Source of the DNA: an uncultured Planctomycetota bacterium
GTDB lineage: Bacteria; Planctomycetota; Planctomycetia; Pirellulales; Thermoguttaceae
DNA length: 42,678 nucleotides
Reading direction: 5' to 3'
Assembly (NCBI GenBank): GCA_902803085.1
Contig: CADCOO010000009.1
Location: forward strand, 1-42,678
The first letter of the stretch is position 1. The number at the start of each line of letters is the position of its first letter. Below the pieces are notes generated by a model. It was given only the letters and a program-made list of their open reading frames with translations. It did no database searches and was not told the origin of the DNA. Shown one piece after another: positions 8,217 to 36,076 of this stretch. A program made the position numbers and the translations under genes.

Positions 8217-10055
8217 ATGAAAACATGGACGACAAGATTCGCGGCGCTCGTCGTCGCCTTTAGCGGTATTATTACGGCGGCGAACGCCGACGAGACGGCG
8301 CAGGCGCGCCTGAACGCGCTCGATTACGGCGTAAAACTCAACGACGAGAAGTTCGACAATACGGCGGCGTTACAGAGCGCGCTCGACGCGGCAGGCGATA
8401 TGGGCGGCGCCGTCGTCGAACTGCCAAGCGGGCGCTTCCGTTTCGACGGAACCCTTGTCGTTCCGACCGGCGTAACTCTCCAAGGGACATATCGCGTTCC
8501 GCCGACCGTCGTGAATAAAGACGAGCGTCCGACCGGCACGACGCTCCTCACGTATGCTAATCGCGGCAATCCGGACGGCGCGCCCTTTATTAATCTTAAG
8601 GGCTCCAACAGCGCGATTAAGGGGCTTGTGGTAACGTACCCGGAATGGAGTATGACGGTCGTTCCGCCGACTCCGTATCCGCCGTGCGTCGCGTCGGAAG
8701 ACACGGAAAACGTCGGCGTGATCGATTGTTGCCTCCTCAATCCGTACGAAGGGATCAGGTTTCATTTAGCGCATCGGCATCTCGTTCGCAACGTTACGGG
8801 CTATCCCAGCTGGCGAGGTCTTTTTGTCGACGAATGTTACGATATTGGGCATATTGAGAACGTGCACTTCTGGCCGTTTGGCGTTTTGTATAAGCCTGAC
8901 GATCCTTACTGCGAGTGGGTGAACGTTAACGGAACGGCGTTTGAATTCGCGCGAACCGATTGGCATTATGTTTCGAACACGTTCTGTTTTGGCTATGGGC
9001 GCGGGTACTATTTCAGCGATCATGGAAAGGGCGGGACGAACGGAAACTTTTTGGGAATTGGCGCCGATTCATGTCGGCGCGCCGTGTTGGTCGAGCAGTC
9101 GCAGAAGCAGGGATTGTTGATTACGAACGGCGAGTTCGTCGGACGCTGGACGAGCGAGGATTCCGTCTGCGTCGAGATCGGCGAGGAAAACGACGGCGCC
9201 GTTATGCTCAATAATTGTTCCTTCTGGGGACCCGTTAAAACGTGCGTTCTTTCGAAACAGAAGACCGGACGCGTTACGCTAACGGCGTGCGAATTCGTCA
9301 ACTGGGACGAGGTTCATTCGCGCAACGCAAAGACGGGCTCGGCGGCCGTGGAAATCGAAGCGGGGCGCGCGACGTTGCAAGGTTGTTCTTTTGAGCAGGG
9401 CGGCGCGCACCTGGCGATCGGAAAGAAGGCGCTTTACGTTACCGCCGTTGGGAATCAGGCGCCCGGTGGATTTCATGTCGTCGGCGACGTTTCGCCTTTT
9501 AAAACCCAGTTTGCCGCTAACGAGCTTGATTCTCTCGACGCGTTTCCCGACGGCAAGACTCATTATCAAGTTCTCCTTGGATCGGCCGGAGACTCGCGTT
9601 TCATTCGATATTGGTACGGACCAGAGGAGAATGCGACGCGAACTTTCAGATGGTCGGGGGACGAATCTCGGCTTGTTCTGCCTCTTCCTGAGAAAGTCGA
9701 GCGCGCGACGGTAACGCTTATTTTAGACGCGCCCGACCAGGCGGCGGCGCAAGACGGAGATTCCGAGACGCCGGGCGTTTATTTTAACGATCAACTCCTC
9801 GCGCCGATCAAACCCGGTCCAAACGCTTTGCAATTTGAGGTCGAGCCGAAGCCGGACGATTTTTCGTCCAATCATGAAATAACCCTCTATGTTCGCTGTC
9901 GCGGCTGGCGTCCCGTAGATTTTCACGCCAATTCCACAGACGAGCGTACGCTAGGCGTCGCTTGTTTCAAAGCGATTGTTCGAACGCCCGACGCCAGGGA
10001 AGACGCGATCTTTAACGCCAATACGGGCGAATGGACGTCGGATGAAGAGGAATAA
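8217..10055 (+). CDS. Secreted right-handed beta-helix protein (pectate-lyase superfamily, Pectate_lyase_3-like N-terminus)
   Basis: 612 aa with a signal peptide (MKTWTTRFAALVVAFSGIITAANA). This is followed by LDYGVKLNDEKFDNTAALQSALDAAGDMGGAVVELPSGRFRFDGTLVVPTGVTLQG, the typical opening of pectate-lyase-3 / GH55-like beta-helix proteins. Confidence 0.65.
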   Translation: MKTWTTRFAALVVAFSGIITAANADETAQARLNALDYGVKLNDEKFDNTAALQSALDAAGDMGGAVVELPSGRFRFDGTLVVPTGVTLQGTYRVPPTVVNKDERPTGTTLLTYANRGNPDGAPFINLKGSNSAIKGLVVTYPEWSMTVVPPTPYPPCVASEDTENVGVIDCCLLNPYEGIRFHLAHRHLVRNVTGYPSWRGLFVDECYDIGHIENVHFWPFGVLYKPDDPYCEWVNVNGTAFEFARTDWHYVSNTFCFGYGRGYYFSDHGKGGTNGNFLGIGADSCRRAVLVEQSQKQGLLITNGEFVGRWTSEDSVCVEIGEENDGAVMLNNCSFWGPVKTCVLSKQKTGRVTLTACEFVNWDEVHSRNAKTGSAAVEIEAGRATLQGCSFEQGGAHLAIGKKALYVTAVGNQAPGGFHVVGDVSPFKTQFAANELDSLDAFPDGKTHYQVLLGSAGDSRFIRYWYGPEENATRTFRWSGDESRLVLPLPEKVERATVTLILDAPDQAAAQDGDSETPGVYFNDQLLAPIKPGPNALQFEVEPKPDDFSSNHEITLYVRCRGWRPVDFHANSTDERTLGVACFKAIVRTPDAREDAIFNANTGEWTSDEEE

Positions 10056-10086
10056 CGAATTCTGTGCCGTAGCCATTTAACGAACG

Positions 10087-10120
10087 AGCGTCCCGTTCGG
10101 CGTGTTCCGGTCGGGACGCT
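10087..10120. terminator. Hairpin between convergent genes, a possible bidirectional terminator
   Basis: AGCGTCCCG (10087-10095) and CGGGACGCT (10112-10120) form a perfect 9-bp stem with a 16-nt loop. A weak T-rich tract (TTACGTTAT) follows. The hairpin lies between the stops at 10055 (+) and 10140 (-). Confidence 0.45.
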
Positions 10121-10139
10121 TTACGTTATCGCCAGACGA

Positions 10140-11333
10140 CTAATGCGCCTTTTTAAGATAGTATGCGCCGAGCAGGCCGAGAACGAGATTGCCGAGCCAA
10201 ATTGAAAGGGGGGGTAAAACGCCGCTCTTAGCGTTATGAAGCGCTATTTGAAAGCACATGAAGTAGGGCGCCAGCGTTATAACGCACGCGACTAACGGCG
10301 TTGGTATTTCCGGTATTCGATACTTCGTTTTGAGCTCCTCTGGATTGTAACAAATGGCGAAGGGCGCGCTCAACCATGCGAAAAAGAAACAACTGAAACC
10401 CGTTGCCCACGCGCGTGGCGCTAGCAACCGATAACCGTTTCGCCGACGTGTGAATTCGCGTTCGCGCCATTCGCGCGATCGCCATTCTTGATGCGACGTC
10501 TCGAAAAGATTACCGGAAAGGAGCGCAAAACTCGCCTGCGCGGCAAGCGTGCGATGGTAATTCTGACGCTCGGCGTCGAGCGTCGCCAGCGCCTCCTTGC
10601 TCTTCGAGGCGGGCGGGTCGATTCTGAACGACTTGAAGAAGTCGTTAATGGGTAGTTCGATCGGGTATTCTTGCGGTAGCGCGGCGACGGCGTTCGGCGT
10701 GTTCGCTTCCGTATTGTAAAGTTTAACGACGACGATCGGACCCAAATCGTCGTTATTCTGCACCTCGATCTCGGCGCGCTCCGCGCTTATGTTGAGGTCT
10801 TCTTTCTTACATGTGAAAACCGGATTAATGAGCACGTTGTCTTCCGTTACCGCGGAAACGTCGATGACGTACTTGTTGCCCGGCAAGGCGAAGGTGCGAT
10901 TCTTCTTCAGTTGCGAGATGATCGTCGATTCGAATCCGTTAATAATCGTATTTCGGAACATTCCCTTGCCCCAGTAAGCGGACAGGTCGGTGAGCCACAC
11001 GTTCGCAAGGCTAACGACGAACATCATGATATAAATGGGCGCAATAATACGCCAGGGCGCTATTCCCATGGCTTTGAGCGCGATGATTTCGTTATTAGCT
11101 CGCATTTTCGAAAAACGATAAGCTATGGCGATAACTCCGAATATCGGTATAAAAATCGAAAGGAGTTCCGGCGCTTTATAAGGAATTGCCTTAATGCCGA
11201 GCGACGCCGGATAGCCTTGAAAGGACGTTTGAATGATCACAAAAACCGGCGTTAGTGCGAAGAGCACTAACAAACAGCGAACAAAAAGACTCAAAACGCC
11301 GAAAAATACGTAACGGGTATATATCCTCATCAT
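10140..11333 (-). CDS. LptF/LptG (YjgP/YjgQ) family permease
   Basis: Multi-TM protein that starts like the family (MMRIYTRYVFFGVLSLF...). It has the conserved KMRANNEIIALKAMGIAPWRIIAPI segment after TM3, a soluble beta-rich middle domain, and three C-terminal TM helices. I prefer the internal Met (11333 or 11330) to the track start at 11414, but the start is uncertain. Confidence 0.65.
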   Translation of the reverse strand: MMRIYTRYVFFGVLSLFVRCLLVLFALTPVFVIIQTSFQGYPASLGIKAIPYKAPELLSIFIPIFGVIAIAYRFSKMRANNEIIALKAMGIAPWRIIAPIYIMMFVVSLANVWLTDLSAYWGKGMFRNTIINGFESTIISQLKKNRTFALPGNKYVIDVSAVTEDNVLINPVFTCKKEDLNISAERAEIEVQNNDDLGPIVVVKLYNTEANTPNAVAALPQEYPIELPINDFFKSFRIDPPASKSKEALATLDAERQNYHRTLAAQASFALLSGNLFETSHQEWRSREWREREFTRRRNGYRLLAPRAWATGFSCFFFAWLSAPFAICYNPEELKTKYRIPEIPTPLVACVITLAPYFMCFQIALHNAKSGVLPPLSIWLGNLVLGLLGAYYLKKAH

Positions 11334-12194
11334 GATCCCTCTCATCCGTGAAAGCGTCGTCTCCAGACGGCGCTTCGGGGGCGGCATCATAATAAATACG
11401 GCGTTAAAAGTCAACCTTGGTTTTCCAATTTACATTTTGGCGACTTTTACTCGTTCCTCCGCGTTTTTGTTCCATTCGTCAGAATCATACTATTCGCGAC
11501 GTTCGCTCCATTTGAAAGAACAGATTTCTCAAACGTTCCCCTAATAAACGTTCTCCTCGATATTTTCTTAAAATGCAATTTCATGCGTTCGACCGGCGTC
11601 TCGTTTTGAGGGATTACGAAAAAACGTCTCTTTCTCCTGAACGAAGGCCTGGACGATTTACGATTCTATCACAGCGAAAAGTTTTCATGCGTCCACGACG
11701 CGCCGCAACGGCTCGACGTCGAATCGCGTCAAACCGCAAGACGAAAGGAATGCGGATGAATTTGGGGCGAATTTAACGATTGTGTCGACCAGCGTCTGCG
11801 TTCGTCGATTTATTTGGGAGCTTTTTGAACGTTGACGGCGAAGCGGAACGTATTACCTACAGCGCGTTGCTAACAAGCGGCGCGGTTGAGGTCGTACGAG
11901 ACGAACGCCGCGACGACGTTATTTTATATGGAAGCGGTTTTGAAAAGCGCGCGAGTTCTGTCGAGAAGACGGCGCTCACGGCGTTTCAACGGCGCAAACG
12001 ACGCGCGTTCGCTATGCCGAACGCGCGTGGCGCGCGGCGAACAACGCGAGATTTTTCTCCACCGGCAGCTTCGCTAGGAGGGCGACTGAAAAGGAGTTCC
12101 ATTTCGATCTTTGGAGAAATGCGCGGAGCGCGTTTGAGCAGGACGCTCGTCCGTAAGATCGACAAACCGACGACGACGGTCGTTTGGTGAAAAC

Positions 12195-14105
12195 ATGTTA
12201 TCAATCCTCCGAATGGGCGTCGGCTTTTGTACGGCGCTTATCCTTTGTTTTCCCGTCTCGGGCAGCGAACCGAACGCTAGTTCATCCGCGTGGACCCCGA
12301 CGGCGACTATGCGGTCAAGCGCGGCGCCCAAGGCGCTACGCGCGCTTGATCCTTCGCAAGCTCGCGACGTTAAACTGGAGCGTTCGCGACCGACGTCCGT
12401 AGTCGATCTTTCGCTCGCTACGAACGACGAAGCGACCCGAATTCTCGAAGAAGGCGAAGAACTCATGGCGCAAAAGCGATGGTTCGACGCGAAAAAACGC
12501 TTTGAGAAAGGGCTGCGATCTTTTCCAGATTCTGCGCCGTTGCGCGCGAAGTTCGCTGAAGCGCGACGGCGTCAGGAGATTGGCGCGCGCTATCAGGACG
12601 GATCTTTCGTTGCGTTAACGACTCGCGCCACGTTAGACGACGCGCGCGTTGTTTTCGACGAGGTTTTCGACGATATCGATCGCTATCACGTCGACTCGCC
12701 GGCGTACCGCGAACTCTTTGATTTCGGGGTCGCCGGGCTTGGCGAGGCGCTCGAAGAAGACTTGTTCTATCGTCAATACAAAGCTCCGTTGACGTACAGG
12801 TCGGTCGGACTTGAAACGTATCGAATCATGCGCGACCGTCTGAAGAGCGAGAGTTTTCGCAATAAGGAAGACGTCTGGCGTGCGGTGCAGTGGATGGCGC
12901 GTCAGCTTCAGCGACGATTAGGAGTTCCTGAGTCGGCTACGATTTGCGAATTCCTGGCTTCTGCCGTCTGTTCGCTCGACGCGTATTCCGCCTCGCTGAC
13001 GCCGGTGCAAGTCGACGACGTTTTTTCACTCATCGACGGACGATTTGTTGGAATCGGCGTCGAGTTGAAGATCGACGCGCCTAATAAAATCGCGCGCGTT
13101 ATTCCAGGAAGTCCGGCTGAAGAAGCGGGAATTCTCGTGGGAGACGAGCTCGTTGAGATTGACGGACAGACGACGGAAAATCTCACGGGCGCCGAGGTCG
13201 GCGATCTCCTCCAGGGCGTGGAAGGTGAAAAAACGACGCTCGTTCTTCGCGGCGCGAGCGGTTTCGAGCGCACGATTACGGCGGTTCGGCGTCCGATTGA
13301 GGTGCCGAGCGTAGAAGACGCGAAGTTGTTGGAAACGCCCGGCTCGATCGGCTACCTAAAGATATCGTGTTTCCAGAAGACGACGACGGGCGAACTTGCC
13401 GTTGCTCTTGATCGATTTGTTGCGATGGGCGCCAAGGCGTTGATAATCGACCTGCGTCAGAATCCCGGCGGGTTGCTTCAAGAAGCGGTTAGCGTGTCGG
13501 AACTCTTTCTGGAAGACGAGATGATTGTTCAGACGCGCGGTCGCAACGGTTACCATGCGTTTCGCGCGCACAACGCGCACGCTTATTCGTTGCCGCTCGT
13601 CCTTTTGGTCGACGGGAATAGCGCGAGCGCGGCTGAAATCTTCGCGGGCGCGATGCAGGAGAATGGTCGAGCGGTCGTCGTCGGCGTTCAGAGCTACGGC
13701 AAGGGTACGGTTCAAGCGATCGTTCAGCTTAACGTGGCGAGCGCCAGTCAGAAGCCGATCGCCGGTCTGCGTCTCACGACCGAGAAGTTCTACTCGCCCA
13801 AAGGACGCGCCTACAGTGGGGTCGGCGTAACGCCGAACGTCGATATCGCGGCGGCGCTGGAACGTCAGTCGCGAATGGCGCCGACGAACCAAGCGTACGC
13901 TCAGGAGATTGCCGAGTCGAGCGCGGAACGCGAAGAGAACGCTTCCGGAGCCGAACGCGAGTTCGTTGGATACATTCGCCGCCCGAGTCGTTCGCAATCC
14001 GATTTCAACGGCGATCTATACCTTTCGATTGGCGTTCGCGAAGCGTTGAAGCTCGAGCAGACTGCGGCCCGCGCCGACGCGCACGCGTTTAACGCCGCGT
14101 TGTAG
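12195..14105 (+). CDS. S41-family C-terminal processing peptidase (Ctp/Prc-like) with a PDZ domain
   Basis: 636 aa with a signal peptide (MLSILRMGVGFCTALILCFPVSG). The PDZ domain reads GIGVELKIDAPNKIARVIPGSPAEEAGILVGDELVEIDG. The S41 core has LIIDLRQNPGGLL, LVDGNSASAAEIFAGAMQ (catalytic Ser) and SYGKGTVQ (catalytic Lys). Confidence 0.88.
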   Translation: MLSILRMGVGFCTALILCFPVSGSEPNASSSAWTPTATMRSSAAPKALRALDPSQARDVKLERSRPTSVVDLSLATNDEATRILEEGEELMAQKRWFDAKKRFEKGLRSFPDSAPLRAKFAEARRRQEIGARYQDGSFVALTTRATLDDARVVFDEVFDDIDRYHVDSPAYRELFDFGVAGLGEALEEDLFYRQYKAPLTYRSVGLETYRIMRDRLKSESFRNKEDVWRAVQWMARQLQRRLGVPESATICEFLASAVCSLDAYSASLTPVQVDDVFSLIDGRFVGIGVELKIDAPNKIARVIPGSPAEEAGILVGDELVEIDGQTTENLTGAEVGDLLQGVEGEKTTLVLRGASGFERTITAVRRPIEVPSVEDAKLLETPGSIGYLKISCFQKTTTGELAVALDRFVAMGAKALIIDLRQNPGGLLQEAVSVSELFLEDEMIVQTRGRNGYHAFRAHNAHAYSLPLVLLVDGNSASAAEIFAGAMQENGRAVVVGVQSYGKGTVQAIVQLNVASASQKPIAGLRLTTEKFYSPKGRAYSGVGVTPNVDIAAALERQSRMAPTNQAYAQEIAESSAEREENASGAEREFVGYIRRPSRSQSDFNGDLYLSIGVREALKLEQTAARADAHAFNAAL

Positions 14106-15913: not shown

Positions 15914-16295
15914 GCGAGCGTTGGACGAACGGTCGCGGGAAATTGGCGTTTGAGCTATTTCCTGAGGAAAGTCCGGACTCCATAGGATACAACGACGGGT
16001 AACGCCCGCCGGTCGCAAGACCAGGGAAAGCGCAACAGAAAGCAAACCGCCTCCGTTAGGAGGTAAGGGTGAAACGGCGAGGTAAGAGCTCACCGCGTTT
16101 CAGGCAACTGAAACGGCATGGCAAGCCCCGTTGGGAGCAAGGGTAAAACGCGTCGCGTTTTTCGTAAACGGAAGGCGATCCGTCTTCAAGACGCAGGTAA
16201 TCCGCTAGAGCGATTAGGCGACTAATCGTCGAGATAAATGACCGTGCTTCTCCATAGCGAGAGGACAGAATCCGGCTTACAGTCCGGCGCTCCAT
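15914..16295 (+). ncRNA. rnpB: RNase P RNA, bacterial type A
   Basis: Universally conserved blocks are present: GAGGAAAGTCCGGACTCCATAGG (P4 5' strand), GGGTAACGCCCG, AGAAAGCAAACCGCC, GGTAAGGGTGAAACGGCGAGGTAAGAGCTCACCGC, GGGAGCAAGG, and ACAGAATCCGGCTTA (P4 3' strand). P1 forms between GAGCGTTGGAC (15916-15926) and GTCCGGCGCTC (16282-16292). The ends are good to within a few nt. Confidence 0.95.
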
Positions 16296-23079: not shown

Positions 23080-26000
23080 ATGTCTCATATTACTATTCGC
23101 GGCGCTCGCGAGCACAATCTGGATAACGTCGATTTGATTTTGCCAAATTCGCAACTCGTCTGCTTTACCGGCGTGAGCGGGAGCGGAAAGAGCTCGTTGG
23201 CTTTTGACACGATCTATGCCGAGGGGCAACGACGATACGTCGAAAGTCTTTCGAGCTACGCCAGGCAATTTTTGGGACAACTTCCCAAGCCCGACGTCGA
23301 TCAGATCTATGGTTTGAGTCCCGCTATTTCCATTTCTCAAAAGACGGGCGTGCAGAACGCGCGGTCGACGGTCGGTACGATAACGGAAATCTCCGATTTT
23401 CTGCGCGTCTTGTACGCGCGCGTCGGAACAGGGTACTGCCCAAAGTGCGGACGCAAGATAGAAGCGCAAACGAGACTGCAGATTATTGAGCATATCAAGG
23501 TCGTTGCAGAGGGGTCAAAAATTACTTTTCTGGCGCCACTTGCGCGCAGTCAGAAAGGACGTTGCGTCGAGTTCTTGAATTCAATGCGCAAAGGCGGGTA
23601 TCGCCGCGCGCGTATCGACGGGCGTTTCGTCTCGCTTGACGTTGAAATTGAGCTTGACCGCCAAACGCGACACTCAATCGACGTGGTTGTCGACCGAGCG
23701 ACCCAGTCGAAGGAAAACTATAGACGGATTACCGAAGCGATTGACGCGGCGTTGCGACTGGGACGCGGAAGAATGATCGTGATCGTCGACCCGCCCGCCG
23801 CGACGGAAGACGCGGCGTTGCAAGGCGCCAAAACGTCTGCGCGCAGAGAGCCCGTCTTTGCTTTCGACGAGCTCGACGACGACTGGCTGGCTAATCCCGT
23901 CGACGTTTTGGACGATTCCAATTCGCCGTCCGACCAGCGGGAACTATACTTCAGCGCCGATTACGCTTGTCCGCAGTGCGGCGTGAGTTTTGAACGACCG
24001 TCCCCGCAGATGTTTAGTTTCAACAATCCGCAGGGAATGTGCCCATACTGTCAAGGCATGGGCGCGTCGTATACTTTCGATCCGGATCTGCTCATTCCCG
24101 ATAAGTCGCGTTCCTTTCAGCAGGGCTGTATCGCGCCAATTGGCAAATGGCAGGATCTCAGCAGTTGGAAGCAGCATATTTATCTGGGAATTGCGACCGC
24201 AATTGCTGAAAAGCGGGGACTTGAGGCGAGAGACGTCTTAGAAACGGCTTGGGAAGAGCTCGACGAAGACGTGCGACGAGATTGGTTGTGGGGAGTCGGC
24301 AATACGCCCGTCTCGTACTCTTGGAAGACCGCCGGTAACGAACACAAGTGGAGCGGTCGGTTCGAGGGACTCATTCCCAAAATGGAGAAGCAGTATCGCG
24401 AGACGACGAATCGCGCGCAGTTGGACGTTATGGAACGCTATATGGCGACGATTCCATGTTCCTTTTGTAAGGGAATGCGTCTTAACGAGCAAGCGCGCGC
24501 CGTTAAAATTGAGACGAAATCTTCCGCGCCGATTTTTGCTGAGAAACCGGAACTCTCGTTGCCGGAGGTCGCCCAGCTGTCGATCAGCGACGCCGCTGAA
24601 TTCTTCCGCGAGCTGAAGCTCTCTGATTCCGGCAAGATTATCGCGCGCGAACTCCTCAAAGAGATAACCTCGCGTCTGGGGTTCCTTGCCGACGTCGGAT
24701 TGAGCTATTTATCTCTGGGACGACCTGCGCCGACTCTTTCGGGCGGCGAGATGCAACGCATTCGACTCGCCGGACAGATTGGCGGCGGTCTCGTCGGGGC
24801 TCTCTACGTTCTTGACGAGCCGTCGATCGGTTTGCACCCTCGCGATAACGACAGACTTATTTCGACTCTTGCAAAGTTGCGCGATCTTGGCAATTCGATT
24901 ATTCTTGTTGAACATGACGAAGACGCCATGCTCGCGGCGGATTACCTCGTCGACTTTGGACCGGGCCCGGGCTCGCGGGGAGGTCGCGTCGTAGCGAGCG
25001 GAACCGTCGCCGACGTGCTCAAGTCCCAGCCAGAGGAAAGCGTGACCGCGCGTTTCCTAGCCGGTAAGGAGCAGATTGAAACGCCGCGCCAACGCCGAAA
25101 ACTTGACGGGCGCGAGTTGGTCGTTCGTGGCGCGCGCCATCATAATTTGAAGAATATCGACGTTCACATCCCTCTTGGCGGCGTCGTCTGCATAACGGGC
25201 GTGAGCGGTAGCGGTAAGAGTTCGCTGGTCAACGATATTTTGCGAGAGGCGCTCGGGCGAGAACTCAATCATGCGATTGGCTATCCTGGCGATCATGACG
25301 GTATCGATGGAATCGAGCATTTAAAGAAGCTCATTTCGATCGATCAGACGCCGATCGGCAGAACGCCGCGCTCGAACCCCGCGACTTATATCAAGCTCTT
25401 CGACGACATTCGCAAGCTCTATTCTGAAACGCCGGAAGCGCGCGCTCGCGGATTCGCGCCTGGAAGGTTTAGCTTCAACGTCGCCGGAGGGCGTTGCGAG
25501 GCGTGCGAGGGAAACGGCGCGATTAAAGTCGAGATGGACTTTCTTGCCGACGTTTGGGCTACCTGTTCCGTGTGCGGAGGCGCGCGATTCAATCAAGAGA
25601 CGCGCGCTGTCAAGTTCAAAGGGCTCTCGATCGATCAGGTTCTCGATCTGGAAGTTGAGGCGGCGCTCGAGTTATTCGAGAACATTCCCAAGATTCGCGA
25701 GAAATTGCAAACGCTTTGCGACGTTGGGCTAGGTTATATGAAGTTGGGACAACCGTCGCCGACTTTGTCGGGAGGGGAAGCGCAGCGCGTTAAATTGGCG
25801 AAGGAGCTTTCCAAAAAAAGCTTTGGCAAAACGATTTATCTGCTCGACGAACCGACGACCGGTTTGCACTTTGACGATATCAAAACCCTCTTGCGCGTTC
25901 TCCATAATTTTGCCGACGCCGGCAATACCGTTCTTATTGTCGAGCACAATCTCGACGTCATTAAAACGGCGGACTGGGTGATCGATCTAGGGCCCGAGGG

Positions 26001-28101
26001 CGGCGAAGAGGGCGGTCGCATCGTCGCGCAGGGCGTACCGGAGGATATCGCGAATAATCCGCGTTCTCACACGGGGCGCGCGCTCAAGGAGTATTTAACG
26101 CGCGATCGTGAGAAAATGGTCGAGCGACTCGTCGCCAAAGAACAAGCCAAACAGAACAAAGACGAAGAGCCGGACGACTCCATTATTATTCGCGGCGCGC
26201 GCGAGCACAATCTGCAAAACGTATCGCTCTCGATCCCTCGAAACAAATTGACCGTATGTTGCGGTCCGAGCGGCAGCGGCAAGTCGTCTTTGGCAATTGA
26301 CGTCGCTTATGCGGAAGGAAGAAGACGGTACGTTGAGAGCCTGTCGAGTTATGCGCGGCAATTTATCGGACAGATTCAGAAGCCCGACGTTGATCAAATG
26401 ATAGGGATTTCGCCTGCGATCGCCATTGAGCAGAAGACGACAAGTCGCTCGACGCGCTCGACCGTTGGTACGATCACGGAAATTTTGGATTATCTGAGGG
26501 TTGTCTTCGCTCGTTTGGGCGTTCCTTACTGTCCAGATTGCGATATTCCCGTCGGCGCGCAGTCGATCGACGAGATTGTCGCGCGCGTTATGCGCATCGG
26601 CGGCGAAGAAGATCGAAGGTTATTGATTATGGCCCCGATTACGCTCGATCAAGGCGAGACGTACGCAAGACTGTGGGAACGGTTGAAGGCGCAAGGCTTT
26701 GCGCGCGCGCGCGTCAACGGTCGGAATTTTACGCTCGACGCGCCCCCGGAGCTTGCACCGAAGAACGTCTATACGATCGAAGCGGTCGTCGATCGCGTCC
26801 AGTTGAAAGCGTCTATGGACTCGAGGGAGCGTAAAAAGATTCGCGGACGCGTTGCCAATAGCGTTGAAACGGCGCTCGAGTGGGGGAACAAAGAAGTTCG
26901 GATCGCCATTGTCGACGAGGCGCGGGATGAGAAAGACTGGGAAACCAGGACGTTAAGTCAAAAGCTGTCCTGCGAACGTTGCGGACGCGCGTTCGAGGCG
27001 CTAACGCCGCGTCATTTCTCGTTCAATAGTCCCTTAGGGCGGTGTCCTCAATGCGAAGGACGCGGCGTTCAAGTCGGGTTTAGTTCCAGAACGCTTATTC
27101 GCGATCCCAAGCTGTCGCTCCTTGAGGGCGCCGTTTCGCTGTGGTCAGATTTTAGCTCGCCCACGACGCTGGCGACGATGCGCGCGCTTGCGCGAAACGT
27201 TGGATTGCCCCTAGACGTACCGTTCGAACGCCTCGATTCGCGATTTCGACGCCTTATTCTGAACGGCGCCGGCGATCGATGGTTCGACGTTCTTGCGAGC
27301 GATCTCGAGATTGCCAGAAGCGCGAAAACCGTCGACGAGCGCGCCGCCGGTCTGAACGCGCCGAAAGGTCGAACGGACAAGGTCGCGTATCGATTCCAAT
27401 ATAAAGGGCTTTATCCTGCGTTGGAAGAAGCGGGACGATTGACGCCCGCGTTTCGTCGACGTTTGGAATTTCAAGAGGAAGATTGCGAATGTTCGAGTTG
27501 CTTGGGCAGTCGCTTGCGCGACGACGTCGCCGCCGTGCGTTTTCATTCGCTCACGCTCGATCAGATATGCCGCACGCCCCTTGACGAGCTAGCGTACTTT
27601 TTCGAATCCCTTGAACTCAGTGAACTGGAACGTGAGGTTGCGGGCGATCTCATTAACGAAATCATTGCGAGATTGCGGTTTTTGGTTGACGTCGGGGTCG
27701 AGTATTTAACGCTTTCGCGACCGGCGAGCACGCTTTCTGGCGGCGAAGCGCAACGCATACGCTTGGCGTCGCAGATTGGGAGCGGACTTGTCGGCGTGCT
27801 TTACGTTCTGGACGAACCGACGATAGGTCTTCATCCTCGCGACAACAATCGCCTCATTTCCGCAATGAAGAAACTTCGAGATTTGGGCAATACGTTGCTC
27901 GTCGTCGAGCATGATCGCGACGTGATCGAAAACGCGGACTTTCTGGTCGATTTCGGCCCGAAGGCGGGGGCGCAAGGCGGTCTCATCGTCGCAACGGGGT
28001 CGCCTGAAGAACTCCGCGAAAATACGTCGTCCGTATCGGGCGCTTACCTTTCGGGGCGCGAATCGATTCCGATTCCAGTAAACCGGCGCATCGTGCCTTG
28101 A
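23080..28101 (+). CDS. uvrA: Excinuclease ABC subunit UvrA fused to an additional UvrA N-half (three ABC ATPase modules, 1673 aa)
   Basis: Module 1 (aa 1-~678) has [34 protein letters not shown], four CxxC zinc pairs, [14 protein letters not shown] and [11 protein letters not shown]. Module 2 (aa ~679-1010) has [52 protein letters not shown] and [10 protein letters not shown]. Module 3 (aa ~1035-1673, from ~26183) has [95 protein letters not shown] and VVEHD. Confidence 0.9.
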
Positions 28102-28125
28102 GCGCGACCGGAAAAAGATTACAAT
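28098..28125 (+). promoter_or_regulatory. Possible internal promoter for the downstream UvrA-C-half gene
   Basis: TTGAGC (28098-28103, overlapping the uvrA stop codon), a 16-nt spacer, then TACAAT (28120-28125), about 115 nt before the ATG at 28242. Confidence 0.3.
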
Positions 28126-28241
28126 TACACGGTTGTTTCAGCGCGTTGGGCGCGATGGACGAAGCATGAGGAAGGCGACGTCGAACCTCTCGGCGAGCGC
28201 GTTTAACGAGTCTTTTTAGCGATAGGGTATTAGGCGCTTCT

Positions 28242-30827
28242 ATGAAGAAAAACTTGCGCAACACCGGTTCCACAAGCGAAACCGACGGCGAGATTGCGGC
28301 GCGTACCGAAACAACGCGTAGAAGAACAAAACGAGCCGAAAACGATTCCGCCGCGACCGAAGGTTCGACGCGCAAAAAAACGAAGAAGGCTAAGCCGACG
28401 TCCGACGCGACTCTCTTCGATCTGAATCCTGACCAAGAGAAAAAGACCGTCAAAACGGCCGCGCGCAAAACGAGCGGCGTTAAACGCGTCGCTTCCTCGG
28501 CCGCCAAGGAGACCGCCGTCGTCCAAAAAAGACGCCGTTCGGACAAAAGCGCCGACTCCGAAACGAAAAAGAGTTTAACGCGCGCGCCGAAAGAGGAGCT
28601 GCTGTTCGACGCTCAAAAGATTTTGCGTCAAATAGCGCGCGTCCCGCTGTCGCGAGCTGAAAAGAAACGCCGGAAAGAGGCCGACGCGCGCAACGCAACG
28701 GCCGCGCCGTCGGATGCGGAACGTTTTTATACCGGCGTTCTCCCTCAGTGGGAGCCCGGATGGCTGTTAGTTCGCGGCGCGCGCCGTCATAATCTCCAGT
28801 TAATCGACGCGCCGATTCCTCTGTCTGCGTTTACCGTCGTTACCGGCGTGAGCGGCAGCGGCAAGAGCACGCTGGTAGAAGAAGCGCTCTATAAAGGCGT
28901 CTTTGCCGATCTTAATCGTCTACCGTTCCCGAGCGACGCCTGTAGCGGCATAATCGGCTCCGAGGCGTTGCGCAAGGTGGTGCGCGTCGACCAAAGTCCG
29001 ATTGGCGCGTCGCCGACCTCGAATCCAGCAACCTATACCGGACTTTTCGATCTTATTCGGCTTCTGTATTCGAAACTGCCGGAATCGCAACTACGCGGCT
29101 ATACGCAGCGTCGATTCAGTTTTAACGTCGAAGGCGGACGCTGTGAAAAATGCCAAGGCGCGGGACTTGTTAAAATCGAAATGCATTTCCTCGCGGATAT
29201 TTGGATTACTTGCGACGCATGCAACGGGAAACGTTACGATTCGGAAACGCTTGAAGTGAAATATCGCGGCAAATCGATTGCCGACGCGCTTGAAACGACG
29301 TGCGGGGAGGCGCTGAATCTATTTGCCGACGTACCCCCGATGCGACGCATTCTGCAGACGCTGTGCGACGTTGGACTCGACTACTTGCCGCTCGGTCAGG
29401 CGGCGACGACTCTTTCTGGCGGCGAGGCGCAACGCGTTAAGCTTGCGGCGGAACTTTCGCGCGTCGACTCGGGACGAACCCTCTACGTACTTGACGAACC
29501 GACGACGGGACTTCATTTTTCCGACGTTCGCAAACTCCTCAACGTCTTGCATCGCCTCGTTGATCTTGGCAATACGGTCGTGGTGATCGAGCATAATATG
29601 GACGTGATTAAGAACGCCGACTGGATCCTCGATATCGGACCGGAGGCGGGCGCAAAAGGGGGAAGACTCGTTTTCGCCGGTACCCCGGAGCAGTTGCTGG
29701 GGTACGTTGAGTCTTACTATCGCGGTGGAGAAAAGTCGAACTCTATGTTGCGTAGCTATACGGGCGAGGCGCTTTTTTCTACTTTCGAACGCGGAACCTT
29801 TGTCGAGCGAGAATTTTGGACCCCGAAAGACGCGACGCGCGATTTCGACGATACTACGGCGGCAGAAGAGGTCGTCGCTAGCGTCGCTCAGGGCATGGAC
29901 GAAGGCCAGCCCTGGGAGACCGACGGAAGACGTTGGCATTTGGAAGCCCCGTCGAAATTGCGACGATGGAGCCCGAAGATCTTGAGCTCTATCGTTGAGA
30001 AACTCGAAGAGAACGACGCCTTTGCCGATACTGATTGGAGTTCGAAAACGCTTGTTGAGACGCGCGCGCTTGAAAAATCTTTCGGCTGGTTTATGCGCGC
30101 CTATACTTCCGACGAGTGGCTTCTCAAATTGAAGTTCCGTCTCCCGAAAAACACCTTTAATCGCGACGCTCTCGCCAAGCGTCTTGCGCTCAAACCGTTA
30201 AATGAAATTGACGAGATTCCTCTCTGTGGAACTCAGTCGCGCATTAAGATCGAAGCGGTTGGCGCATGGCAGGAAGTGGAAATCAAGGTCTTTTCCTACG
30301 ACGAAATTGACACGCCCGAGTTCTGGAGATTTCTCGAGTTCGCCATTGAACGTTTTACCGCGCGCGTAAACGAATCTAAAAAGGACGACGTCGATTTGAC
30401 GCCGTGGCGGCGCGACGGGAGGGACTGGCATCTCTCGAAAGAGGGGCTCGCCGGCGCAAGCGACGAGACGCTGTGGGACGCGACCCTTTTGGAAGGAACT
30501 CTTAACGAGATAGAGCTCGTTAATCAAGAAGGTAAAACGGTCTGGAATAAAAGGACCTTTGTCGAGTTTATTACGAGAAACGGCGTTCTCTGGGCGCAAG
30601 TTTACACGAAGAACAAGGACTTTATTTGCGTTCAACTTAATGCCGCAAAGGGGTTCTTCAAGCCGAAAATGTACCAGAAGCTGGGTTTTGAACCGGAACT
30701 TGACGATTCGGAAGCGGAGCGCGATTCGCTCTATCTCCGTTGCCGCAACGACGCGGTCTTTGACGACAAACGGTTCAAGGCTCTATTGAAGACCGTCTAT
30801 CAGGAAGCGTGCGAGACCGGAAAATAA
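28242..30827 (+). CDS. UvrA C-terminal-half homolog (single ABC module) with a basic N-terminal low-complexity region and a duplicated C-terminal domain of unknown function
   Basis: aa 1-~173 is K/R/T/A-rich (KKTKKAKPT, KRRRSDKS, EKKRRKE). aa ~174-490 has [49 protein letters not shown]...[34 protein letters not shown] and VVVIEHN. aa ~515-861 has no motif I recognise, but shows an internal repeat (QPWETDGRRWHL... / TPWRRDGRDWHL...). An in-frame TGA at 28167-28169 closes the frame upstream, and 28242 is the first start codon after it. Confidence 0.88.
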   Translation: MKKNLRNTGSTSETDGEIAARTETTRRRTKRAENDSAATEGSTRKKTKKAKPTSDATLFDLNPDQEKKTVKTAARKTSGVKRVASSAAKETAVVQKRRRSDKSADSETKKSLTRAPKEELLFDAQKILRQIARVPLSRAEKKRRKEADARNATAAPSDAERFYTGVLPQWEPGWLLVRGARRHNLQLIDAPIPLSAFTVVTGVSGSGKSTLVEEALYKGVFADLNRLPFPSDACSGIIGSEALRKVVRVDQSPIGASPTSNPATYTGLFDLIRLLYSKLPESQLRGYTQRRFSFNVEGGRCEKCQGAGLVKIEMHFLADIWITCDACNGKRYDSETLEVKYRGKSIADALETTCGEALNLFADVPPMRRILQTLCDVGLDYLPLGQAATTLSGGEAQRVKLAAELSRVDSGRTLYVLDEPTTGLHFSDVRKLLNVLHRLVDLGNTVVVIEHNMDVIKNADWILDIGPEAGAKGGRLVFAGTPEQLLGYVESYYRGGEKSNSMLRSYTGEALFSTFERGTFVEREFWTPKDATRDFDDTTAAEEVVASVAQGMDEGQPWETDGRRWHLEAPSKLRRWSPKILSSIVEKLEENDAFADTDWSSKTLVETRALEKSFGWFMRAYTSDEWLLKLKFRLPKNTFNRDALAKRLALKPLNEIDEIPLCGTQSRIKIEAVGAWQEVEIKVFSYDEIDTPEFWRFLEFAIERFTARVNESKKDDVDLTPWRRDGRDWHLSKEGLAGASDETLWDATLLEGTLNEIELVNQEGKTVWNKRTFVEFITRNGVLWAQVYTKNKDFICVQLNAAKGFFKPKMYQKLGFEPELDDSEAERDSLYLRCRNDAVFDDKRFKALLKTVYQEACETGK

Positions 30828-30876: not shown

Positions 30877-30911
30877 AAAAAAGCCGCCGAAGAACTCTTC
30901 GACGGCTTTTT
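30877..30911. terminator. Bidirectional terminator hairpin between the UvrA-C-half gene and the tRNA-Pro pair
   Basis: AAAAAA-GCCGCCGAAG-AACT-CTTCGACGGC-TTTTT forms a 10-bp stem with one mismatch. An A-run flanks it on the 5' side and a T-run on the 3' side. Confidence 0.65.
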
Positions 30912-30914
30912 CAG

Positions 30915-30990
30915 TCGGGGCAACTGGATTCGAACCAGCGACCTTTTGACCCCCAGTCAAACGCGCTAAACCAGACTGCGCCATGCCCCG
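30915..30990 (-). tRNA. tRNA-Pro (anticodon GGG), copy 1
   Basis: The reverse complement folds as CGGGGCA-TG-GCGC-AGTCTGGTTTA-GCGC-G-TTTGA-CTGGGGG-TCAAA-AGGTC-GCTGG-TTCGAAT-CCAGT-TGCCCCG-A. It has a 7-bp acceptor stem, anticodon loop C-U-GGG-G-G with G37, and T-loop TTCGAAT. CCA is not encoded. Confidence 0.93.
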
Positions 30991-31046
30991 GAACGGTATT
31001 CTCAATATCAAACAAGGCCTCGTCGAGACGACAAACGCCTAATTAG

Positions 31047-31122
31047 TCGGGGCAACTGGATTCGAACCAGCGACCTTTTGACCCCCAGTCAAACGCGCTA
31101 AACCAGACTGCGCCATGCCCCG
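31047..31122 (-). tRNA. tRNA-Pro (anticodon GGG), copy 2, identical to copy 1
   Basis: The 76-nt sequence is identical to 30915..30990. The copies start 132 bp apart and are separated by a 56-bp spacer. Confidence 0.93.
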
Positions 31123-32422: not shown

Positions 32423-35400
32423 TTAATTGATTCCGTAAAGCTGCTTCGCTAGGTCTTGAATTCCCTTAAGGTTTAATTTGCCCGTTCCTAGAATGGGAAT
32501 TTCTGGGACTTGTTTAAAATTGGCGGGGGCGGGAATCCACAGTTGCGGTAAGACGCCGGCGTCGAGCGCGCGTTTGCAGAGTTCTTCGGGGGCGCAAGGG
32601 AGATCGACGTAAAGTACGACGAGCTTTTCTCCTTTGCGTTCGTCGGGAACTGCGGTTACCACGAGATTGAGCCCGCCGGAGCTTGACGAATCGTCGCCGT
32701 CCTGCTCGTTGTTCGGTTGATCCGACATATCTTTGAGCGCTTCCAGAAGCTTCTCTTCGATGAACGCGTGCGGCGCCATTTCGCCGCCTATTTTCGAAAT
32801 GCGCGTTTCACGACCCGTTATGAAGATGAAATTGTCTTCGTCAATTTTGGCGATATCGCCTGTTACATACCAGCCGTCTTTAAAAATAGAACTCGTTCTT
32901 TCGGGATCCTCGTAGTATCCTTCCGTAACGGAATTACCTTTGACCAGCATCATGCCCGACGTATTGGGCGGAAGCTCTTCGCCGGTTTCCATGTCGACGA
33001 CCTTGGCGACGAAATTGGGATCGGGCGTTCCTATGGAGAAGTCCTTATGATACGGCGTAATGTCGTCGGGCGCGTCGCATTCCGGTATATTATGGCTGAA
33101 AACGGGCGAGAGTTCAGTTGCGCCGTAACCTTCGTTGAGACCGACGCCAAACTTTTCCTTGCAATCAGCGTAGAGTTGAGCTGGCGCCTTTTCCGCGCCG
33201 ACGATGGGGAAGTAAACCGATTCGAAGTCCTCTTTGGAACATTTTCGAATGTACGTTCGCATAAAAGTCGGAGTTGTTACGAAAAGATCGGGACGATACT
33301 TTTTAATAACGGCGGCGACGCCTTTATAGTCCAGAGGATTGTAGTGGTAATAGCACGCGTAGGGATGATAAAGCGGAAACCATATGGTAACGGTGTAGCC
33401 GAAGGAGTGGAAAAAGGGCAACACGCCGCAGAGACTCAAATTGTACGCCGGCATTGCGGACTGAGCGAAACTTTGCGCGTTTGCCGAGATGTTCGCGTTT
33501 GTCAGAACGGCGCCCTTGGGCAACCCGGTCGACCCGCTTGTAAAGACGATCGTGTTGATATCCGTCAATTTCTCTTTCGTTAGTCCCAAAATACGCTCAA
33601 GGAGCCAAGTCGGCAGAAGCGATTCAAGAAAGCCGACTAACTTGTCGCTCGTACGAATATTGCTTTTGGCGACTTCTTCGAGAGGTAAAACCTCCGCTTC
33701 GAGATCGAGTTTAGGGAGCTTTTTAAGAAGTTGCGAGGACGCGACGATCGTCTTAATGCCAACCTTGTGAATACAGTAATTATTCACGTCGTTTGTAAAC
33801 GTGTAATTCAGGTTGATGGGAATACGACGATCAAAAGCGAGCGCCGCGTTGACCAAAACCCCTGCCACGGACGTCGGAAGAAGAACGCCGACGAACTTTT
33901 CAGGCGGCAAGATGCGGTGAAGTAGTCGACGAAGAACAAGGATTTGGAGGAGCGCCTGCTTGCCCGTCGTTTCTTTGCCCGTTGAATCGCCAAAGTGGCG
34001 CCGAGCGCCGGACAAACGCAGACCGCGAATCGCGCCGCGAGCGGGCGTATAAAGGAAGACGTTCTCAGGATGCTTGCGGTAATCGGTCGCGTCTATGTTA
34101 AGCTCCTGGACGATGTGCAAGAGCTTTTGCATGATGTGCGCGTCGCTGCAGCCTTTGGCTCGTTCGTCTTCTACGGAATAGGTCGAGCCGTAGGATATGG
34201 TCAAACGATAGGGCGCCTTGCGGCGATAGCCCTTGGGTTTCGCATAGGCAAATCGGGAACCGTAAAGTCCCGTTATCGCGAAAGGAATAATAGGCGCGTT
34301 CGGCGTCTTTCTAAGAAGCGCGAGAAAGCCGGGCTTAAATGCGCGCGTCTGACCGTCGCGCGTTATCGCGCCTTCGGGGAAGATGCAGACGACTTCGCCG
34401 TTTTGGAGCGCCGTTTGCGCCTCGCGTAGCATGTATGCCGTCGATTTGCGCGATTTAGGATCAAATTGAATTACGCCCGTTTTACGGATTACGAAATTCG
34501 CCAGGCGGCTCTTTGCCGGGAGGAAATTCTGATCGGAAATGAATCGAACGGGGCGCGACGAACTGGTGTAAACGATCAGCGCGTCGAGGAATGACACGTG
34601 ATTGCCAAGGAGGAGAACGGGACCTTCTTTGGGAATATTGTCGACGCCGTACTCGCGCATCCCGTACGTAATCTTAAGCCAATTCGTAACGAGGACGCGC
34701 AGAAGGGGAATCGCAAACGCTCGGAGAGTCAGATAGAGCACGGGTATGCTGATAACCGAACAGACTAACCAAATCTCGGCGCCGTTGAGCCCGGTAAGCG
34801 CCTGTTCTCCCTTCTCGTTGACCGTTTCCCTTAAAGGGAGACCGCCGAGAAAACTCTGGAATACGGCGAAGAGCGCCATTGCCGCAAAGGAAAAGAAGTT
34901 GTACGCCGCCAAAATACGACCGCGATGTTCCGCAGGACTTTCCGTTTGAAGAACGGCGACGAGCGGCAAGTCGTACATTGTCGCAGAAAGACCCAACAGA
35001 AGAAGACCCGTTCCCGCAAACATGAAACCGAAAGAGTGGGGCGACGCCAATTCCCGAGGAACGAACGGCGTAAAGAACAGGATAAACGAGAAAACGACAA
35101 TTGCAAGCGCGCCGAGCGGCACAAGACCGAGCTCAATACGTCCGCGCGACAATTTTCCGGCTATAACCGCGCCGCCCGCCATACCTACTGAGAGCGCTAC
35201 AAGAAGCGCCATCGCCCAATCTTGGGGGACGTTGAGGTATTCGGTCGCGAATTTATCGATATTGATTTGCGCAAGCGCGCCGACGCCCCAAAAGAACGAA
35301 CTTGCCATAGCTATCCAGAATAGGTAGCGATTTTGAACGAGGAGTTTCAGATCGGCGTACGTCTGACCAATCGGGTTCACTGGAAATTTCGCGTGGGGAT

Positions 35401-36076
35401 CCGCCGCCGTAATCGAGGGCAGGAAGAAGCTAGAGATGAGGCCGAGAACTGCTACTCCGACAATGACGCTCGACCAGATGATCCAGTTATGCATTCCGCC
35501 TTGACCAATTTCCGGTAGACCCTGATTATACGGCGTCGTGAGAACAAAGAGGATTCCTCCTAAAACTTGACCGCCTATGCACGCGACCATCGTCGTCATC
35601 GTTATGTAACCGTTGGCTTCGGAAATACGATTGCCGGGAACGATATTAGGAATACTGCCGTATTTGGCGGGACTGAAGAAGGCGCTTTGCGCAGCCATGA
35701 GGAAGAGCGTGGCGAGCATAAAAGGAACCGACTGCAGAAGGATCGCTATGGTCCCGATCGCCATAACGACTAGCTCGGCGGCTTTGCACCATATGATAAC
35801 CTTGCGACGGTTGAAACGGTCGCAACAGTAGCCCGCGTAGGTCGCAAAAAGGAGGAACGGCACGAGAAACGCTATGGAGCCTATTCCGCGAATCTTGTCC
35901 GGATTGTCGGACCAACCGATCGCGCATTTCCCAATGGGAATGATCAGCCAACGGAAAATATTGTCGTTGAGCGCGACCATGAATTGCGTGATAAGGAGCG
36001 CGATAAAACCTTTGGTCCAGAGCGGCGATTTCGCGGTTTCAATCGCTTCCACATTGCGGGACGCCTGCGTTTCCAT
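32423..36076 (-). CDS. Triple fusion: MFS transporter (LplT-like), PlsC-type acyltransferase and AMP-binding acyl-ACP/CoA synthetase (Aas-like)
   Basis: 1217 aa. aa 1-~450 has about 12 TM helices of MFS type. The acyltransferase HX4D motif is LLGNHVSFLDALIV (encoded near 34582-34600), with the FPEGAITRDG block. The adenylation motifs are VFTSGSTGLPKGAVLT (near 33513-33542), GYGATE, YVTGD and GKLN. Confidence 0.85.
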   Translation of the reverse strand: METQASRNVEAIETAKSPLWTKGFIALLITQFMVALNDNIFRWLIIPIGKCAIGWSDNPDKIRGIGSIAFLVPFLLFATYAGYCCDRFNRRKVIIWCKAAELVVMAIGTIAILLQSVPFMLATLFLMAAQSAFFSPAKYGSIPNIVPGNRISEANGYITMTTMVACIGGQVLGGILFVLTTPYNQGLPEIGQGGMHNWIIWSSVIVGVAVLGLISSFFLPSITAADPHAKFPVNPIGQTYADLKLLVQNRYLFWIAMASSFFWGVGALAQINIDKFATEYLNVPQDWAMALLVALSVGMAGGAVIAGKLSRGRIELGLVPLGALAIVVFSFILFFTPFVPRELASPHSFGFMFAGTGLLLLGLSATMYDLPLVAVLQTESPAEHRGRILAAYNFFSFAAMALFAVFQSFLGGLPLRETVNEKGEQALTGLNGAEIWLVCSVISIPVLYLTLRAFAIPLLRVLVTNWLKITYGMREYGVDNIPKEGPVLLLGNHVSFLDALIVYTSSSRPVRFISDQNFLPAKSRLANFVIRKTGVIQFDPKSRKSTAYMLREAQTALQNGEVVCIFPEGAITRDGQTRAFKPGFLALLRKTPNAPIIPFAITGLYGSRFAYAKPKGYRRKAPYRLTISYGSTYSVEDERAKGCSDAHIMQKLLHIVQELNIDATDYRKHPENVFLYTPARGAIRGLRLSGARRHFGDSTGKETTGKQALLQILVLRRLLHRILPPEKFVGVLLPTSVAGVLVNAALAFDRRIPINLNYTFTNDVNNYCIHKVGIKTIVASSQLLKKLPKLDLEAEVLPLEEVAKSNIRTSDKLVGFLESLLPTWLLERILGLTKEKLTDINTIVFTSGSTGLPKGAVLTNANISANAQSFAQSAMPAYNLSLCGVLPFFHSFGYTVTIWFPLYHPYACYYHYNPLDYKGVAAVIKKYRPDLFVTTPTFMRTYIRKCSKEDFESVYFPIVGAEKAPAQLYADCKEKFGVGLNEGYGATELSPVFSHNIPECDAPDDITPYHKDFSIGTPDPNFVAKVVDMETGEELPPNTSGMMLVKGNSVTEGYYEDPERTSSIFKDGWYVTGDIAKIDEDNFIFITGRETRISKIGGEMAPHAFIEEKLLEALKDMSDQPNNEQDGDDSSSSGGLNLVVTAVPDERKGEKLVVLYVDLPCAPEELCKRALDAGVLPQLWIPAPANFKQVPEIPILGTGKLNLKGIQDLAKQLYGIN

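Follow-up and report, generated by a model that had tools for sequence, protein, structure and literature searches.

A planctomycete double UvrA divided between two genes, probably by one ancient fission

In the symmetric homodimer formed by UvrA, with its four ATP sites, any mutation hits both protomers, so that the roles of the individual sites are hard to assign to one protomer or the other. What, then, is to be made of a locus in which four UvrA nucleotide-binding domains (NBDs) are distributed three to one over two neighbouring genes? Such a locus is found in an uncultured planctomycete of the Thermoguttaceae (assembly GCA_902803085.1, contig CADCOO010000009.1, positions 1 to 42,678; this whole stretch of 42,678 nt is referred to as the window). 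The answer that we favour, and to which we would assign a probability of roughly 0.75, is that a planctomycete double UvrA was split here by one ancient fission and would still work as a 1:1, asymmetric damage sensor resembling the UvrA2 dimer.

The two open reading frames (ORFs), gene 1 and gene 2 (Table 1), lie on the same strand, 140 nt apart and in different frames. A first-pass annotation, made from the letters of the window, had described a complete UvrA and a second N-terminal half in gene 1, with the matching C-terminal half in gene 2. This anatomy is borne out: both ORFs and every motif position that it had listed were recovered by a motif scan, and the coordinates of matches to hidden Markov models (HMMs) agree. 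In gene 1, Walker A motifs are located at residues 31, 707, and 1062 (nt 23170, 25198, and 26263), LSGGE signatures at 553, 896, and 1552, Walker B motifs at 575, 919, and 1574, and H-loops at 610, 954, and 1609, accompanied by 10 CxxC pairs in a 4+2+4 layout. Gene 2 has Walker A at residue 202 (nt 28845), LSGGE at 391, Walker B at 414, the H-loop at 449, and two CxxC pairs. NF001503, the NCBIfam equivalog model of UvrA, matches gene 1 in two stretches with 1992 bits (cutoff 1147): residues 2-1007 correspond end to end to model positions 4-942, and residues 1035-1670, i.e., module 3, to positions 6-608 (683 bits). Residues 174-492 of gene 2 take up the model at positions 614-932 and score 495 bits alone, which is under the cutoff because only this part of the model is present. 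Together, NF001503 and the motifs give four NBDs, three in gene 1 and one in gene 2, as had been anticipated. Of the accessory domains, PF17760 (UvrB interaction) and PF17755 (insertion, DNA-binding) are each found twice in gene 1 by Pfam. When a canonical UvrA HMM is used, copy A covers positions 4-940 (1318 bits), and copy B, joined from both genes, covers positions 3-928. The full class-I set, consisting of two NBDs with all ATPase motifs and 4 + 2 CxxC pairs, is contained in copy A within gene 1, whereas copy B reaches it only when gene 1 residues 1035-1673 are combined with gene 2 residues 166-495. The exact gene 1 protein is present on three contigs.

Copies A and B are 48% identical to each other. 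Module 1 and module 3 share 40% identity over 698 aa, and module 2 and module 4 share 55% over 319 aa; because of these low identities, the duplication must be old and is no assembly repeat, as the first-pass annotation had held. Module 2 aligns with positions 623-956 of the Geobacillus UvrA chain 2r6f_A (E 4e-197), and module 4 is 56-62% identical to the C-terminal halves of canonical UvrAs from many phyla. Between its UvrB-binding domain and the next zinc module, copy A bears an acidic, poorly conserved insert (23785-23950; gene 1 aa ~236-290) of variable length, which reaches about 250 aa in the relative P0006 and is enlarged also in two other split loci, L001 and L002.

Whether the break is peculiar to the window can be judged from the 120 best matches of gene 1 in a search of 5.8 billion proteins. 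Both the same split and an unsplit form, which the first-pass annotation had proposed to look for in relatives, were found: 25 of the 120 have three modules, measure 1673-1782 aa and all end in P[VI]NRR[IV]xx, whereas about 93 carry four modules and a C-terminal extension, in the same order of parts, on one protein of 2300-2625 aa. The 25 three-module proteins are clusters at 90% identity and come from different projects. The long homologs, where named, belong to metagenome-assembled genomes (MAGs) of Thermoguttaceae, Pirellulales, Planctomycetaceae, or Planctomycetia and are annotated “excinuclease ABC subunit UvrA”. The double UvrA predominates among the planctomycete relatives that were retrieved. 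Of the unsplit proteins, the closest (P0003, P0006, P0022, and P0034; 2359-2625 aa) show 55-60% identity across all of gene 1 and are continuous across its stop point, beyond which the order is ...PVNRRI/M, a basic linker, GWL..GARHNNL, module 4, and the extension. Read against these orthologs, the locus is a planctomycete tandem double UvrA that has been cut within copy B, in the linker that joins its NBD-I to its NBD-II. The first-pass annotation had also considered a canonical UvrA tethered to half of a split paralog; the unsplit orthologs and the tree described below speak instead for a derived fission of a double UvrA. Another four-module double UvrA, of 2071 aa, is encoded in a Pirellula sp. 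MAG (L026; JAJTID010000113.1, 6845-13060). It ends in ...RSYTGEALKDLL, a normal UvrA C-terminus, and is without the extension, and the gene that follows it is unrelated. Because the extension is lacking there, it is confined to part of the phylum and was gained or lost within Planctomycetota.

The split itself was followed in seven loci (the window, L083, L001, L002, L085, L086, and L087) from independent JGI, NCBI, ENA, and Logan assemblies. The gene with a single NBD and the extension lies directly downstream of the three-module gene in all seven. Five of the six other loci (L083, L001, L002, L086, and L087) have a gap of 89-152 nt at the corresponding position, and the MKK start of gene 2 is kept in six of the seven. 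At L085 (9583-10580), the MKKS start (ORF 9693..10253) is out of frame with the main ORF (9925..12807), an apparent frameshift within the low-complexity tail that may be due to an assembly error or to a real change. The gap of the window contains several stop codons in each of the three frames. A sequencing frameshift at 28.1-28.24 kb, which the first-pass annotation had feared, is thereby countered, as it is by the gap of the orthologs and by the same endpoint in the 25 clusters; the split is genuine, old, and conserved, and not an artefact. Recoding, i.e., readthrough or frameshifting that would fuse the products of both genes, was considered as well and rejected in view of several stops in every frame over 140 nt. 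A terminator scan of the gap found no terminator-like hairpin on the + strand, whereas a strong hairpin follows gene 2, so that co-transcription of both genes would fit. The latter hairpin is likely a bidirectional terminator shared by gene 2 and the convergent tRNA-Pro genes.

To place the fission, copy A and copy B pieces were aligned by hmmalign to one HMM, together with 54 canonical UvrAs of other phyla, and a tree was built by neighbour joining with 200 bootstraps. The canonical outgroup was drawn from a contig scan with the alignment of gene 2 orthologs, keyed on the universal UvrA core peptides GGRCEKC and KIEMHFL, which yielded 79 canonical uvrA loci of other phyla and one Pirellula locus. 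Copy A forms a clade of its own at 100% bootstrap, as does copy B, and A+B are set apart from all canonical UvrAs at 100%. The four split sequences sampled fall into a single clade, at 100% for copy A and for copy B alike, and this clade is placed with the unsplit P0003 and P0006 at 96-100%. The tree thus indicates a single derived and ancient gene fission in this lineage of Planctomycetia.

Both sides of the break have remained under constraint. Between the window and L083, which are 86% identical, dN/dS (the ratio of nonsynonymous to synonymous substitution rates) amounts to 0.044 (module 1), 0.046 (module 2), 0.058 (module 3), 0.059 (module 4), 0.084 (extension), and 0.26 (gene 2 tail), values that are approximate because dS is saturated (1.2-2.6). 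All four modules are thus under strong purifying selection, in agreement with the earlier statement that the ATPase and zinc motifs look intact and that neither copy looks like a pseudogene. The A-B linker is 33% identical and the gene 2 tail 46% identical to L083, compared to 83-93% for the modules that flank the linker.

How could two such products work together? The ATP sites of UvrA, two per monomer, are composite, each being built from both halves of one copy (PMC6486640), and both ATP sites of copy B would therefore need the products of gene 1 and gene 2. In the working that we propose, gene 1 would supply copy A as well as ATP-binding domain I, signature domain I, and the UvrB-binding and insertion domains of copy B, and the gene 2 product would associate with it and thereby complete both copy B sites. 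With four ATP sites and two UvrB-binding domains, the resulting 1:1 complex would correspond to one UvrA2 dimer, though to a covalently fixed and asymmetric one, and would sense damage for nucleotide excision repair by UvrABC. We propose a 1:1 complex because most relatives carry modules 3 and 4 on one chain and because both modules are under strong constraint. Comparative data provide strong indirect support for the four modules from the two products acting as one four-NBD unit; physical association, the 1:1 stoichiometry, the intramolecular pseudo-dimer, and the role in excision repair are what we infer from it. The residue five positions before LSGGE is Arg in the distal and Gln in the proximal sites of UvrA (PMC6486640); in the locus, modules 1 and 3 have Arg at this position and modules 2 and 4 have Gln, so that the distinction is preserved in both copies.

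Copy B alone bears the extension, and the proposed asymmetry can also be traced in the conservation of the copies, which was scored on alignment columns with a conservation of 90% or more in canonical UvrAs. Over the three core segments of the NBDs, 88-95% of these columns are kept in copy A and 84-89% in copy B. The corresponding values are 84% versus 69% for the UvrB-binding domain, and 64% versus 52% for the insertion domain. Two near-invariant arginines of gene 1, R761 and R764 in the GRTPRSNP motif of signature domain II, are equivalent to R691 and R694 of Geobacillus UvrA when the 20-residue tag in the alignment with 2r6f_A is allowed for. R691 has reportedly been named as a DNA-binding residue. 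Both arginines are replaced in copy B, by Q/A and T, in nearly all planctomycete sequences: module 4 of the window reads IGASPTSNP, with QSPIGASP at gene 2 residues 251-258 (28992-29015) versus TPIGRTPR at gene 1 residues 757-764 (25348-25371). Cationic residues are presented to DNA by signature domain II of UvrA (PMC6486640), so that the two “protomers” are unlikely to be equivalent on DNA, and the loss of both arginines from copy B suggests asymmetric DNA contacts.

About 60% of gene 2 lies outside module 4, which qualifies the earlier description of this gene as the missing C-terminal half: module 4 is as claimed, but the remainder is made up of a basic tail and a lineage-specific C-terminal domain. 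The tail (pI 10.5, 43 K+R, and 13% hydrophobic residues over 165 aa) sits where unsplit relatives have the NBD-I/NBD-II linker, as seen in the alignment with P0003 and P0022, and it measures 165 aa or more in split forms versus about 70 aa for the unsplit linker. The tail is the former linker, which has lengthened. A short LS..E..RR motif directly before module 4 is common to the gene 2 tail and the unsplit P0003.

The extension, restricted to planctomycete double UvrAs save for the seemingly free-standing copies given below, comprises ~370 aa, with repeat 1 at residues 557-720 (29910-30401) and repeat 2 at residues 721-861 (30402-30824), each of which opens with PW..DGR.WH. The internal repeat is recovered by hhalign with a probability of 97.3% (E 1.8e-11), and an AlphaFold2 model built from a 56-sequence alignment (predicted local distance difference test, pLDDT, 88.9) presents the extension as two tandem alpha/beta modules. 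In a model of gene 2 residues 166-861 (pLDDT 87.5, predicted template modelling score 0.66), module 4 reaches a pLDDT of about 90 and is tied to the extension by a connector of lower confidence. No Pfam relative of the extension was obtained at E<=10, profile searches of the PDB with gene 2 gave matches only in the UvrA part, and Foldseek found no relative of the extension at E<=1e-3 in the PDB or BFVD. Weak Foldseek matches to LAGLIDADG nucleases, type III secretion chaperones, and small phage proteins were rejected for their poor TM-scores. An exhaustive search of 1.84 billion representatives with the extension profile yielded 609 matches, and those inspected were joined to UvrA module 4, were fragments, or were seemingly free-standing copies. 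Among these matches, P0260 (1381 aa) has its first residue precisely at the onset of copy B (MVGARQNNLK...) and continues through the whole extension, so that it would represent a 2+2 split, and P0209 (321 aa) and P0253 (359 aa) begin with Met and seem to be extension domains that stand alone. All three may be further fission variants, or truncated or frameshifted gene calls. In P0223, the N-terminal domain of TrmE is joined to an ABC fragment and the extension; as a new domain context this candidate was set aside, since it is most likely a chimeric gene call.

What the extension does is a matter for candidates, viz., partner binding, DNA binding, or localisation. One could go further and imagine the double UvrA, above all in its split form, as an obligately asymmetric sensor, in which copy A keeps the canonical contacts with DNA and UvrB, while the extension and tail of copy B recruit another partner or anchor the complex to some structure of the cell. 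Anchoring would fit with observations on Tuwongella immobilis, whose UvrABCD subunits are all found in the SDS (sodium dodecyl sulfate)-soluble fraction (S3) and not in the Tris-soluble fraction (S1) (PMC8567305). Such a division of work, which we consider rather doubtful, would, if true, add a new functional layer to bacterial excision repair by way of a domain without known relatives.

Other explanations of the locus start from the same data. The partner with which either copy pairs is not fixed by the sequence, and pairing of A with A' and of B with B' between molecules would lead to a higher-order assembly, (gene1·gene2)2 or chains with eight or more ATP sites. Most conserved UvrA positions are kept in both copies and the A-B linker has only about 27 residues, both of which would suit such an arrangement. 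However, A and B have co-diverged as a pair in all planctomycete sequences sampled, they show complementary copy-specific substitutions, as expected if A faces B, and the fusion of a tandem homodimer would most simply result in an intramolecular dimer; we therefore consider intermolecular pairing unlikely. It is more improbable still that both genes encode independent proteins, e.g., that gene 2 is a homodimeric, single-NBD ATP-binding cassette (ABC) ATPase with a new C-terminal domain and that module 3 is a non-catalytic appendage of gene 1. It is true that the start of gene 2 is conserved, that its product has a long tail and a domain of its own, and that a weak promoter-like site is located ahead of the gene, and the extension also occurs in the seemingly free-standing metagenome ORFs P0209 and P0253. 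Yet a dead appendage is hard to square with the intact Walker A and B motifs, signature, and H-loop of module 3 and its dN/dS of 0.058. Moreover, ~93 of the 120 closest relatives carry modules 3 and 4 on one chain, both halves of a copy are needed for the UvrA ATP sites (PMC6486640), and gene 1 and gene 2 are adjacent in 7/7 split loci.

Hardly any weight can be given to an artefact or a recent pseudogene, i.e., a frameshift or a fresh nonsense mutation in a normal 2400-aa gene, even though the break falls in a low-complexity linker, which is error-prone in assemblies, and L085 shows its apparent frameshift in the tail. The same end residue recurs in 25 clusters at 90% identity from different projects, the 89-152 nt gap with stops in all frames is not accounted for by a single-base shift, and the MKK start is conserved. 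In addition, the tail has more than twice the length of the unsplit linker, purifying selection is strong on both sides of the break, and the split clade is monophyletic.

Several points weigh against a split double UvrA that acts as a 1:1 damage sensor, or at least narrow what can be claimed for it. An intramolecular A·B pseudo-dimer and pairing between molecules, as part of a larger assembly, cannot be told apart. Copies A and B are 53% and 50% identical to canonical UvrAs, respectively, versus 48% between A and B, and because each copy is thus slightly closer in identity to canonical UvrAs than to the other, the grouping of A+B, which comes from the neighbour-joining tree only, could be helped by long-branch attraction. 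The saturation of dS noted above belongs here as well. A weak match to -35/-10 elements at 28098-28125, found by a promoter scan, would leave some room for separate transcription of gene 2. Finally, that this locus represents “the” UvrA of its host would rest on the T. immobilis study (PMC8567305).

Table 1. Parts of the uvrA locus and the adjoining hairpin, with window coordinates (aa, residues of the respective gene product).
Feature	Coordinates	Strand	Description	Basis
Gene 1	23080..28101	+	1673 aa; UvrA copy A complete, linker, N-half of copy B; C-terminus ...PVNRRIVP (stop)	ORF list, NF001503, motifs
Gene 2	28242..30827	+	861 aa; basic tail, copy B C-half, C-terminal extension	ORF, NF001503, orthologs
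Module 1 = copy A NBD-I	23080..25095	+	aa 1-672; ATP-binding domain I, signature domain I, four CxxC pairs	Pfam, motifs
Module 1 accessory domains			UvrB-binding domain aa ~130-235 (PF17760 130-235); insertion domain aa ~334-452 (PF17755 334-452)	Pfam
Module 2 = copy A NBD-II	25096..26100	+	aa 673-1007; C-terminal zinc hairpin CEAC...CSVC, GRTPRSNP intact	
Charged linker, copy A to copy B	26101..26181	+	aa 1008-1034; poorly conserved	
Module 3 = copy B NBD-I	26182..28098	+	aa 1035-1673; own UvrB-binding and insertion domains, four CxxC pairs, Walker motifs	
Intergenic gap at fission point	28102..28241	+	140 nt	Three-frame translation, promoter/terminator scan
Gene 2 N-terminal tail	28242..28736	+	aa 1-165; basic, low complexity; MKK start	Composition, alignment
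Module 4 = copy B NBD-II	28737..29726	+	aa 166-495; Walker A GVSGSGKS, CEKC...CDAC zinc hairpin, LSGGE, Walker B, H-loop	
C-terminal extension	29727..30824	+	gene 2 aa 496-861; connector, then two tandem alpha/beta repeats	
Hairpin, 16 pairs	30877..30912		between gene 2 and convergent tRNA-Pro genes	Terminator scan

The surroundings of the pair are shared as well. Flanks common to the split loci are MnmA and an aminotransferase upstream, and a PF10672 methyltransferase and a large fusion of major facilitator superfamily (MFS) transporter, acyltransferase, and AMP-binding parts downstream. In the window, this triple fusion of 1217 aa (32423-36076, - strand) combines an MFS transporter with an acyltransferase and an AMP-binding (acyl-activating) enzyme; it is also found beside the uvrA pair in L083 and resembles a lysophospholipid transporter joined to an acyltransferase/acyl-ACP (acyl carrier protein) synthetase. 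Two tandem tRNA-Pro(GGG) genes (30914-30990 and 31046-31122, - strand) are convergent with gene 2, and both copies are identical to each other and to two copies in L083, with a diverged spacer. Farther upstream, the window encodes an RNase P RNA of bacterial class A (15917-16295, + strand; Rfam RF00010, 302 bits).

If the pseudo-dimer of A and B is real, it would be a naturally asymmetric UvrA in which each copy, and in this locus each half of copy B as well, could be addressed genetically on its own. From the split it is also clear that UvrA can tolerate a break in its NBD-I/NBD-II linker, which could be useful for engineering and for questions of ABC domain assembly, and the extension is a candidate for a new accessory module of excision repair in Planctomycetota. 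For annotation, the consequence is that gene 2 orthologs, which fall under the cutoffs of UvrA models, are easily mislabelled as generic ABC ATPases, while gene 1 orthologs are labelled as complete UvrA.

The closest known system is the planctomycete double UvrA. A fused (“double”) UvrA was noted for the T. immobilis proteome (Front Microbiol 2021, Fig. 13, PMC8567305), in which all four UvrABCD subunits, the fused UvrA included, were found (PMC8567305). The novelty that the first-pass annotation had attached to the locus must therefore be narrowed: the double UvrA is already known in print and annotated in databases, and the split form is what is new here, as no published description of the 3+1 split, the gene 2 tail, or the extension was found in the literature. 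Both forms share the same four modules in the same order, their copies A and B are orthologous, and the same extension is present in the forms of ~2300-2625 aa; they differ in that the double UvrA is one ORF, whereas here a stop after ...PVNRRIVP is followed by the 140-nt gap and a new MKK start. A UvrA of about twice the normal length is also described by NF001885/PRK00635, a model of 1809 aa named “excinuclease ABC subunit A”, presumably the long UvrA of Chlamydiae and, if so, from the same Planctomycetes-Verrucomicrobia-Chlamydiae (PVC) superphylum. However, its cutoff is 3054 bits, and gene 1 and the unsplit P0022 score 980 and 1299 bits, respectively, which places both outside this family; module 3 matches model positions 8-595, i.e., the first half, and copy B has no specific tie to the second half of the model.

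Class II UvrA proteins (Deinococcus UvrA2, DrrC, and Ecm16) are likewise UvrA-derived ABC ATPases that occur beside or in addition to a repair UvrA, but they lack the UvrB-binding domain (PMC3167621) and are neither tandem nor split. The locus is not class II, because both of its copies keep this domain. With canonical class-I UvrA (NF001503/TIGR00630; PDB 2r6f, 3pih, and 3zqj; e.g., from E. coli, Geobacillus, Thermotoga, and M. tuberculosis), it has in common the ATPase and zinc motifs, the UvrB-binding and insertion domains, and the Arg/Gln signature. However, canonical UvrA is one chain of ~940 aa that forms a symmetric homodimer, whereas the planctomycete locus encodes chains of 1673 and 861 aa with two diverged, tethered copies, one of which is split, an additional tail and C-terminal domain, and a copy B without the equivalents of R691 and R694.

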